Part shown: positions 1-21,910 of the stretch, one piece after another | How positions within the stretch are numbered: the first letter of the stretch is position 1 | How the letters are laid out: every line of letters begins with the position of its first letter | From: a virus | Taxonomy: Duplodnaviria; Heunggongvirae; Uroviricota; Caudoviricetes | Direction: 5' to 3' (one strand) | Length of the DNA: 21,910 nucleotides | Virus record (IMG/VR): IMGVR_UViG_2579778884_000002 | Translations under genes and position numbers: made by a program | The notes under the pieces: model-generated | The model's input: only the letters and a program-made list of their open reading frames with translations | What the model was told of the DNA's origin: nothing | Database searches by the model: none

Positions 1-451
1 AGAGCGTCTTGCCGTCAGGCAGCAGCGAAGCAAAGTGTTACTGACGTCGCTGCATGAATGGATGGTGGAGAAGAATGGTACGCTGTCGAAAAAATCCAGA
101 CTGGGCGAAGCGTTCAGCTATGTACTGAATCAGTGGGATGCCCTCTGTTATTACAGTGATGACGGTCTGGCGGAGGCGGATAATAATGCTGCGGAAAGAG
201 CGCTTCGTGCAGTCTGTCTCGGAAAGAAAAACTTTATGTTCTTTGGCAGCGATCACGGCGGCGAGCGTGGAGCACTGTTGTACGGGCTGATCGGCACCTG
301 CCGTCTGAACGGTATCGATCCGGAAGCGTATCTGCGCCATATCCTGAGCGTACTGCCGGAATGGCCTTCCAACCGAGTTGACGAACTCCTGCCATGGAAC
401 GTAGTACTCACCAATAAATAAGCGTCAATACGGTGCTCCGTTGACGCTTAC
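1..451 (+). mobile_element. IS66-family insertion sequence, 3' portion (transposase C-terminus plus terminal inverted repeat); element continues upstream of the window
   Basis: Open frame from base 2 to 421 (ORF track 35..421) has the conserved IS66 transposase C-terminal region (LGKKNFMFFGSDHGGERGALLYGLIGTCRLNGIDPEAYLRHILSVLPEWP). Bases 421-451 read on the minus strand give GTAAGCGTCAACGGAGCACCGTATTGACGCT, beginning with the GTAAGCG typical of IS66-family terminal repeats. Confidence 0.8.
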
Positions 452-1005
452 CCTTTATCAAAGGTTTTGTCACCATTTGTAGTTCCCATCATCTGGGCAA
501 GCCATCCACCGGCAGAGTCACCCAGAACTCCGATTCTTTGAGGATCAATCCCATAATTGCTGGCATGCTCTCTCAGGTAACGTATTGCAGCTTTTCCATC
601 CTCAACTGGTGCTGGAAATGTATCAGGAATTGTTCTGTATTCTACAGCGGCCACAACAAAACCAGCTTCTGCCAGAGCCATTCTCATTTCAATAAATTTG
701 TCATGTTCAGAAGACATGAATCCGCCGCCGGGATAATAAATAATGGCTGGTTTTAAATCATTTGTTCGCGGGACAAGAACTGACATGTGAAGCTGTCTGA
801 CAGAACGAGTTCCTTTTATCTGGGAATAAACAACATCACCAATGAGATCGACCTGGTTTCTGGTCGGTGAAACACTAATGATATCTGCACCCGGGGTGTA
901 ACCAGGAAGATTAGTCTGGACAGGTGTTGCACAACTCCCGACCGACATGGCCATTGACATACCATACAATAGTGTTGCAGATGATAATATCTTGTTAATT
1001 TTCAT
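448..1005 (-). pseudogene. alpha/beta-hydrolase (esterase/lipase, HGGG-type) with N-terminal signal peptide, 3'-truncated by the IS66 insertion
   Basis: 185-aa ORF with oxyanion-hole motif YPGGGF and nucleophile elbow GDSAGG but no downstream Asp/His of the catalytic triad. The reading frame runs into the IS terminal repeat and its stop codon (448-450) lies inside the IS end. N-terminus MKINKILSSATLLYGMSMAMSVGSC looks like a signal or lipoprotein peptide. Confidence 0.6.
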
Positions 1006-1452
1006 GTTTTACATGCCTTGACTTATCGGATGAAATTCTCTTACTAAATTTAACGGCAGTTTAATAGCCGTACAACTCGTGGTAGCCAGGGAAATATCCC
1101 AGTCGTGGTTAAGGTTGTACTTGACGGCTATTATTTCAACAATGCTTAAAGTGAGAGCTTAAGGTTATGCGTATGTTTTACAGTCCGAGTAGATTCTGAC
1201 CAATAGCTTCTTTGTATAATTCTGTCAGAAATAAATCTTGGCTTGCATGAAGTTTGAGACCTTATCTTGTTTGATTATGAATAATCAATTCGCCATAATT
1301 GTATCACCGGAGCCTGAACAACTCCGGTGACTTCTGCGCTAAACGGGGACGTTTATGCGCACACACAATCCAAACTCTCTTCTCCCTTCACAGATGCAGA
1401 AATGCACCTGCGTTTTTTTGCATCTAGCGTCTGACCTCTGTGGAGGTGAAGC

Positions 1453-5122: not shown

Positions 5123-5416
5123 TTATTGTGAGCAATACACACGCGCTTCCAGCGGAGTATAAATGCCTAAAGTAATAAAACCGAGAAATCCATTTACGAA
5201 TGTTTGCTGGGTTTCTGTTTTAACAACATTTTCTGCGCCGCCACAAATTTTGGCTGCATCAACAGTTTTCTCCTGTCCAATTCCCGAAACGAAGAAATGA
5301 TGGGTGATGGTTTCCTTTGGTGTTACTGCTGTCGGTTTGTTTCCAACAGTAAACGTCTGTTGAGCACATCCTGTAATAAGCATTGCCAGAGCGGCAGAAA
5401 ACAACATTTTTTTCAT
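5123..5416 (-). CDS. bor: Bor outer-membrane lipoprotein (serum-resistance lysogenic-conversion factor)
   Basis: 97-aa product from the internal ATG at 5416 (MKKMLFSAALAMLITGCAQQTFTV...), matching recalled lambda Bor with lipobox LITGC. The longer ORF-track version (to 5464) adds 16 N-terminal residues. Confidence 0.95.
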   Translation of the reverse strand: MKKMLFSAALAMLITGCAQQTFTVGNKPTAVTPKETITHHFFVSGIGQEKTVDAAKICGGAENVVKTETQQTFVNGFLGFITLGIYTPLEARVYCSQ

Positions 5417-13119: not shown

Positions 13120-14145
13120 ATGTCGATGTACACAACCGCCCAGCTGCTGGCGGCAAATGAGCAGAAATTTAAGTTTGATCCGCTGTTTCTGCGTCTCTTT
13201 TTCCGTGAGAGCTATCCCTTCACCACGGAGAAAGTCTATCTCTCACAAATTCCGGGACTGGTAAACATGGCGCTGTACGTTTCGCCGATTGTTTCCGGTG
13301 AGGTTATCCGTTCCCGTGGCGGCTCCACCTCTGAATTTACGCCGGGATATGTCAAGCCGAAGCATGAAGTGAATCCGCAGATGACCCTGCGTCGCCTGCC
13401 GGATGAAGATCCGCAGAATCTGGTGGACCCGGCTTACCGCCGCCGTCGCATCATCATGCAGAACATGCGTGACGAAGAGCTGGCCATTGCTCAGGTCGAA
13501 GAGATGCAGGCAGTTTCTGCCGTGCTTAAGGGCAAATACACCATGACCGGTGAAGCCTTCGATCCGGTTGAGGTGGATATGGGCCGCAGTGAGGAGAATA
13601 ACATCACGCAGTCCGGCGGCACGGAGTGGAGCAAGCGTGACAAGTCCACGTATGACCCGACCGACGATATCGAAGCCTACGCGCTGAACGCCAGCGGTGT
13701 GGTGAATATCATCGTGTTCGATCCGAAAGGCTGGGCGCTGTTCCGTTCCTTCAAAGCCGTCAAGGAGAAGCTGGATACCCGTCGTGGTTCTAATTCCGAG
13801 CTGGAGACAGCGGTGAAAGACCTGGGTAAAGCGGTGTCCTATAAGGGGATGTATGGCGATGTGGCCATCGTCGTGTATTCCGGACAGTACGTGGAAAACG
13901 GCGTCAAAAAGAACTTCCTGCCGGACAACACGATGGTGCTGGGGAACACTCAGGCACGCGGTCTGCGCACCTATGGCTGCATTCAGGATGCGGACGCACA
14001 GCTCGAAGGCATTAACGCCTCTGCCCGTTACCCGAAAAACTGGGTGACCACCGGCGATCCGGCGCGTGAGTTCACCATGATTCAGTCAGCACCGCTGATG
14101 CTGCTGGCTGACCCTGATGAGTTCGTGTCCGTACAACTGGCGTAA
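13120..14145 (+). CDS. E: Major capsid protein E
   Basis: 341 aa from the ATG at 13120 (MSMYTTAQLLAANEQKFKFDPLF...), matching recalled lambda gpE. Confidence 0.97.
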   Translation: MSMYTTAQLLAANEQKFKFDPLFLRLFFRESYPFTTEKVYLSQIPGLVNMALYVSPIVSGEVIRSRGGSTSEFTPGYVKPKHEVNPQMTLRRLPDEDPQNLVDPAYRRRRIIMQNMRDEELAIAQVEEMQAVSAVLKGKYTMTGEAFDPVEVDMGRSEENNITQSGGTEWSKRDKSTYDPTDDIEAYALNASGVVNIIVFDPKGWALFRSFKAVKEKLDTRRGSNSELETAVKDLGKAVSYKGMYGDVAIVVYSGQYVENGVKKNFLPDNTMVLGNTQARGLRTYGCIQDADAQLEGINASARYPKNWVTTGDPAREFTMIQSAPLMLLADPDEFVSVQLA

Positions 14146-21860: not shown

Positions 21861-21910
21861 ACACGGCAGCGGAAGCCATCCGGGCGCTGTCGTTACAGGT
21901 GCCGGGCTTT
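21758..21910 (+). CDS. I: Tail tip assembly protein I, 5' part (continues past the window end)
   Basis: ATG at 21758 in a different frame, overlapping the 3' end of K by 103 nt. Translation MAATHTLPLASPGMARICLYGDLQRFGRRLSLYVNTAAEAIRALSLQVPGF matches the recalled lambda gpI N-terminus. Confidence 0.85.
   Translation, partial: MAATHTLPLASPGMARICLYGDLQRFGRRLSLYVNTAAEAIRALSLQVPGF

Follow-up and report, generated by a model that had tools for sequence, protein, structure and literature searches.

A complete copy of ISEc23, an insertion sequence (IS) of the IS66 family, appears to have inserted by simple transposition into codon 185/186 of a 347-aa prophage hydrolase gene and to have inactivated it, a reading to which we give a probability of about 95%. 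The window, meaning the whole 21,910-nucleotide stretch of DNA that was analyzed, opens inside the element and continues through the 5′ part of the gene into a lambda-like prophage (Table 1).

The preliminary description, made from the sequence without database searches, had assigned the element to the IS66 family. Profile searches of the tnpC reading frame confirmed the family, with matches to the Pfam domains DDE_Tnp_IS66 (PF03050, E = 7.7e-26) and DDE_Tnp_IS66_C, the IS66 C-terminal element (PF13817, E = 4.9e-17), as well as to the NCBIfam model transpos_IS66 (NF033517, E = 1.1e-37). The bit score of this last match lies below the whole-protein cut-off because only 139 of the 537 TnpC residues are in view. 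The identity could be refined further, as the right (tnpC) end of ISEc23 seen in the window shows 100% identity to complete copies at three other loci (L001, L002, and L009). Complete ISEc23 is 2,532 bp long, contains its genes in the order tnpA-tnpB-tnpC in all three of these copies, and is labeled in RefSeq as “IS66-like element ISEc23 family transposase” together with tnpA and tnpB. The final bases of the element (...CGCTTAC) end at position 451, and three other loci with ISEc23 part from the window at exactly that base. Its two terminal inverted repeats are imperfect (21 of 27 positions are equal between the right repeat and the left repeat GTAAGCGTAAACTGACCGCCGTATGTA, the latter read in L003 and L001), and both begin with 5′-GTAAGCG.

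A search for exact matches to the 185-aa product encoded next to the element led to a 1.08-Mb draft scaffold (KK736514.1 of GCA_000692795.1, referred to here as L003), which is 100% identical to the window across all 11,005 shared bases. On this scaffold, window base 1 adjoins a run of 1,868 Ns inside the IS; the left edge of the window is an assembly gap within ISEc23 and no biological boundary. The preliminary description had pointed upstream for the rest of the element and for a 3′ portion of the hydrolase gene displaced by it, and both are found across the gap. The first 289 bp beyond it are identical to the left end of ISEc23 and include part of tnpA (a 68-aa fragment matching HTH_Tnp_1), so that the scaffold shows this fragment and the 3′ end of tnpC, with the remainder of the element in the N run. 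There follow the 8 bases GATAAAGG (L003 positions 13163–13170) and then the remaining hydrolase gene (GDFLQQ...NPNANL, stop). The same 8 bases flank the right end of the element in the window, and elements of the IS66 family are expected to duplicate 8 bp of their target. When the IS and one of the two copies are removed in silico, a 1,044-nt gene results that has no mismatches to the intact gene of CCUG 73778. Together, the perfect 8-bp duplication, the displaced 3′ part, and the exact restoration of the gene constitute the signature of simple transposition. We assume this particular copy of ISEc23 to be intact on the strength of its left 289 bp and its right 451 bp, each of which shows 100% identity to known copies; between them, approximately 1,792 bp are represented by the N run.

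At the junction itself, the hydrolase reading frame runs into the terminal inverted repeat and acquires its stop codon from the end of the IS, just as it had been read from the sequence alone. The minus-strand open reading frame (1005..448) encodes 185 aa and closes with the codons TTT GAT AAA GG/G TAA (the slash marks the junction), in which the IS terminus GTAAGCG contributes both the TAA (450..448) and the last base of the Gly185 codon. The intact gene reads on at this point as GGT GAC TTT. The junction was not found in either orientation in 5,426 complete RefSeq E. coli genomes, nor in exact-pattern scans of IMG/VR viral contigs or JGI metagenome contigs, and the full structure is seen only in the draft scaffold.

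Table 1 Features at the insertion junction, in window coordinates
Feature	Position	Strand	Basis
ISEc23, right-hand 451 bp	1..451	+	100% identity to L001/L002/L009; starts at the N-run edge in L003
TnpC, C-terminal 139 codons (full length 537 aa; WP_000080195.1)	2..421	+	Pfam, NCBIfam, RefSeq annotation of L001
Right terminal inverted repeat of ISEc23	425..451	-	Minus strand 5′-GTAAGCGTCAACGGAGCACCGTATTGA; compared with the left inverted repeat
TAA stop of the truncated reading frame	448..450	-	Direct reading; IS terminus G-TAA-GCG
Target-site duplication copy, 8 bp	452..459	+	CCTTTATC on the plus strand, GATAAAGG on the gene strand; intact-gene nt 547–554
Prophage alpha/beta-hydrolase gene, 5′ fragment (pseudogene), codons 1–185	452..1005	-	Profile matches, identity to the intact protein, motifs
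Upstream/intergenic region, hydrolase start to ybcN/ninB	1006..1452	.	Same as in genomes with the intact gene

The truncated product is identical to residues 1–185 of the intact 347-aa protein WP_000700202.1 and is catalogued at NCBI as WP_032179069.1, “alpha/beta hydrolase, partial”. It matches the Pfam family BD-FAE (PF20434, E = 1.4e-27) and also Abhydrolase_3, although in both cases the match is confined to the first half of the profile. Profile positions 6–117 of 215 are covered, whereas the intact protein matches BD-FAE from end to end (E = 5.7e-45). No NCBIfam equivalog reaches its cut-off for the hydrolase. The intact protein aligns over residues 48–330 with Lip_vut4, a metagenomic lipase of solved structure (6nkf, E = 1.6e-37), as well as with the 6mly esterase domain and the acetyl-xylan esterase 6xyc, and its GDSAGG, HGSKD, and GAEHG motifs pair with the Ser, Asp, and His motifs of all three. 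The intact allele contains a complete Ser-Asp-His triad and a complete fold, and its family membership suggests esterase chemistry of the BD-FAE or fold-3 type.

Retention of the oxyanion hole and the nucleophile, with loss of the Asp/His part of the triad, had been predicted for the fragment, and the alignment bears this out. The 185 residues keep the oxyanion loop PGGGF at 92–96 (GGGF, 93–96) and GDSAGG at 162–167 with the nucleophile Ser164, while Asp276 (within HGSKD) and His308 (within GAEHG) lie beyond residue 185 and are encoded in the displaced 3′ part, leaving the short reading frame with neither a complete triad nor a complete fold. Because both residues lie in the displaced part, the fragment is a pseudogene, and the loss of Asp276, His308, and half of the fold would be expected to abolish enzymatic activity. 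The preliminary claim that an accessory gene was inactivated by an IS is supported, and all the checks proposed with it had favorable outcomes. The description of the hydrolase as secreted needs refinement, a lipoprotein being more likely than a free enzyme. Residues 15–25 fit a lipobox pattern of the PROSITE PS51257 type (GMSMAMSVGS/C25, with the slash preceding Cys25), and Lys2 and Lys5 are present in the n-region, which suggests that the hydrolase is probably a lipoprotein.

Beyond the junction, positions 452–21889 of the window are collinear with the lambda-like prophage of CCUG 73778 at 99.9% identity, in the gene order ybcN/ninB, ninE, ybcO, rusA, ylcG, Q, lysis genes, iss/bor, terminase, and head and tail genes. 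Positions 452–1450 are 100% identical to a locus with an intact hydrolase gene (L008). Promoter-like matches in a promoter and terminator scan of positions 400–1500 were not above shuffle expectation. The hydrolase gene had been placed beside the replication/nin module. It does adjoin the nin side, where ybcN/ninB starts at position 1453. The replication side is separated from it: on the source scaffold, the 3′ part of the hydrolase gene is followed by a convergent gene for a 1,421-aa inverse autotransporter, and only then by lambda P, lambda O, ydaT, and ydaS. The GC content of the hydrolase and autotransporter genes is 0.44–0.45 compared with 0.50–0.54 for the backbone, which fits a cargo cassette placed between P and the nin region.

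Several further observations concern the prophage as a whole. The inverse autotransporter is intimin/invasin-like (IAT_beta, Big_1, and Invasin_D3 repeats), and is encoded at 13697–17962 of L003 and 2209–6474 of L008 with a GC content of 44%. The prophage carries it as cargo, with lambda P on one side and the hydrolase gene, with which it converges, on the other. In iss/bor (5123–5416, minus strand), eight clustered substitutions at window positions 5186–5333 distinguish the window from each of the seven related loci with which it was compared. Apart from these, the loci are nearly identical over several kb, and the patch looks like a small gene conversion from another bor/iss paralogue. Collinearity with the CCUG 73778 prophage is lost in the last ~50 bases (about 21862–21910), in the tail-assembly K/I region, probably at a mosaic boundary between lambdoid tail modules.

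The hydrolase gene region is present in 681 of 5,426 complete E. coli genomes, including the ST131 reference strains EC958 and JJ1886. In nearly all of these 681 genomes the region is unbroken, most of them have the uninterrupted 347-aa homologue, and the intact allele occurs in the same context without the IS. Isolated lambda-like phages, among them 4A7, Lambda_4C10, Perceval, and D2, also carry the hydrolase at 98.3% protein identity. The comparison with uninterrupted homologues that the preliminary description had proposed therefore returns proteins of 347 aa, both in complete E. coli genomes and in lambda-like phages, rather than of about 185 aa. The intact protein is found on at least 1,000 contigs, and the exact 185-aa form on 30 contigs from NCBI, ENA, and Logan.

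These distributions bear on two other accounts of the truncated gene. In most complete genomes with ISEc23 next to the hydrolase, the element has the same orientation and lies 474 bp further out, and BLAST against those genomes returns two pieces spanning 1,924 bases compared with 1,450 in the window. ISEc23 might accordingly have landed first at the 3′ end of the gene, as in Ecol_AZ146, and then deleted the adjacent 474 bp down to codon 185, in which case the 3′ part would be lost. The source scaffold instead keeps the whole 3′ part across the IS with a perfect 8-bp duplication, and the Ecol_AZ146 site GGGTTTTG is present in it once, without a footprint. With the 3′ part displaced rather than lost, and with the signature of an independent simple insertion, IS-mediated adjacent deletion is ruled out as a highly improbable route.

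The 185-aa reading frame might also be a natural short form of the enzyme, or the junction an artefact of assembly, and it is in keeping with this that the window starts at a scaffold gap and that no complete genome among the 5,426 contains the junction. However, a metagenome contig (L005) independently shows this junction, including 55 nt of the adjoining IS, and the exact 185-aa product recurs on the 30 contigs mentioned above. The full-length homologues of 347 aa and the match of the 185-aa frame to only the first half of the Pfam profiles also speak against a natural short form. For practical purposes these observations refute both versions, and we consider the chance that either is correct to be negligible.

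Simple insertion of a complete ISEc23, the reading that we prefer, would have proceeded as follows. The 2,532-bp element (tnpA-tnpB-tnpC) would have transposed into codon 185/186, duplicating the 8 bp GATAAAGG. Its target would have been a low-GC cassette, made up of the hydrolase gene and the convergent inverse-autotransporter gene, between the replication gene P and the nin region (here ybcN/ninB, ninE, ybcO, rusA, ylcG, and Q) in a lambda-like prophage of a kind typical for E. coli ST131. The terminus GTAAGCG places an in-frame TAA directly after Gly185, and the 5′ fragment that remains encodes the oxyanion loop and the nucleophilic Ser in addition to the signal peptide, without the triad Asp/His or the C-terminal half of the fold. 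Judged from its sequence, the hydrolase gene would be inactive.

Other insertions were found in the same cassette. Complete genomes contain three further ISEc23 insertions. Every one of them has a separate 8-bp duplication and shares the orientation seen in the window. In the Ecol_AZ146 type (~65 ST131 genomes), the last four hydrolase codons are replaced, giving a product of 343 aa compared with 347 aa (duplication GGGTTTTG); in AVS0935 the element lies near hydrolase codon 217 (duplication ACTGATTC); and in M70 the autotransporter gene is interrupted in its 3′ end (duplication GGACTTAT). Together with the site in the window, all of these fall within one 572-bp stretch of the intact locus (L008:6436–7007). 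In AVS0051 the hydrolase gene is split by a different element, IS1.

The exact junction nucleotide of the window, position 452, is also shared by contigs that differ in the adjoining IS end. The right end of ISEc23 abuts it in the window, in L003, and in L005. In L004 (10555–10694, 140 nt past the junction) and L007 (3947–3975, 29 nt), the left end of ISEc23 abuts the same nucleotide, which corresponds to an element in the opposite orientation, and the same 185-aa product results. In L006 (4530–4559), a different IS66-family element meets this nucleotide with its tnpC-proximal end, and the same 185-aa product again results; the TnpC of that element is WP_000998013.1, and O157:H7 contains many copies of it. 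The flank in L006 is only 98.8% identical and its Q and porin neighbours differ, in line with a more diverged prophage. The target lies in a small palindrome, CCTTTGATAAAGG (CCTTT-GAT-AAAGG), with a GGTGAC direct repeat on either side.

Like the junction of the window, the opposite-orientation junction was not found in the complete E. coli genomes. Its origin by homologous recombination between copies of the IS was considered and rejected by reasoning, since such inversions keep the pairing between flank and IS end. Because recombination is unable to swap the IS end at a flank, independent insertions at one nucleotide are likely, and the junctions of the window, of L004/L007, and of L006 look like such independent events. 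On this basis we tentatively suggest, while considering it somewhat less probable than the contrary, that IS66-family transposases favor GATAAAGG as a target or, more loosely, the ~570 bp that surround the convergent 3′ ends in the cassette. To our knowledge, target choice in the IS66 family is poorly defined. Literature searches on ISEc23 and on target preference in the IS66 family yielded nothing about this locus or about a hot spot. If the suggestion is correct, the site would be a natural recurrent target for the IS66 family, and this possible recurrence at the hydrolase site is the sole aspect of wider interest here. Inactivation of a prophage accessory (moron) gene by an IS is otherwise routine in the decay of E. 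coli genomes and matters little. In practical terms, the 185-aa reading frame should be annotated as a pseudogene fragment and not as an esterase.

Compared with known systems, both the IS and the prophage cargo gene are known already, and the resulting pseudogene is catalogued as partial. Relative to known ISEc23 copies, the right 451 bp in the window and the left 289 bp in the source scaffold are both 100% identical, the GTAAGCG termini and the 8-bp duplication are alike, and the sequence is without any difference; the insertion site alone is new, being absent from the complete RefSeq E. coli genomes. The three further ISEc23 insertions (Ecol_AZ146 type, AVS0935, and M70) share the element, the orientation, and 8-bp duplications with the window and differ from it in position, and the catalytic domain is split only by the ISEc23 of AVS0935, the IS1 of AVS0051, and the insertion in the window. 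The closest intact counterpart is WP_000700202.1 of ST131-type lambda-like prophages, whose residues 1–185 are identical, with 100% identity of the DNA over window 452–1450, and whose loci have the same neighbours, namely the inverse autotransporter and, on the opposite side, ybcN, ninE, ybcO, and rusA; relative to it, the copy in the window is cut after Gly185 and is without Asp276 and His308. At greater distance, the full-length protein conserves the Ser, Asp, and His motifs of the BD-FAE and hormone-sensitive-lipase-like (fold-3) esterases 6nkf, 6mly, and 6xyc, but the prophage hydrolase differs from those enzymes in being phage-borne and in its lipoprotein-type signal peptide.
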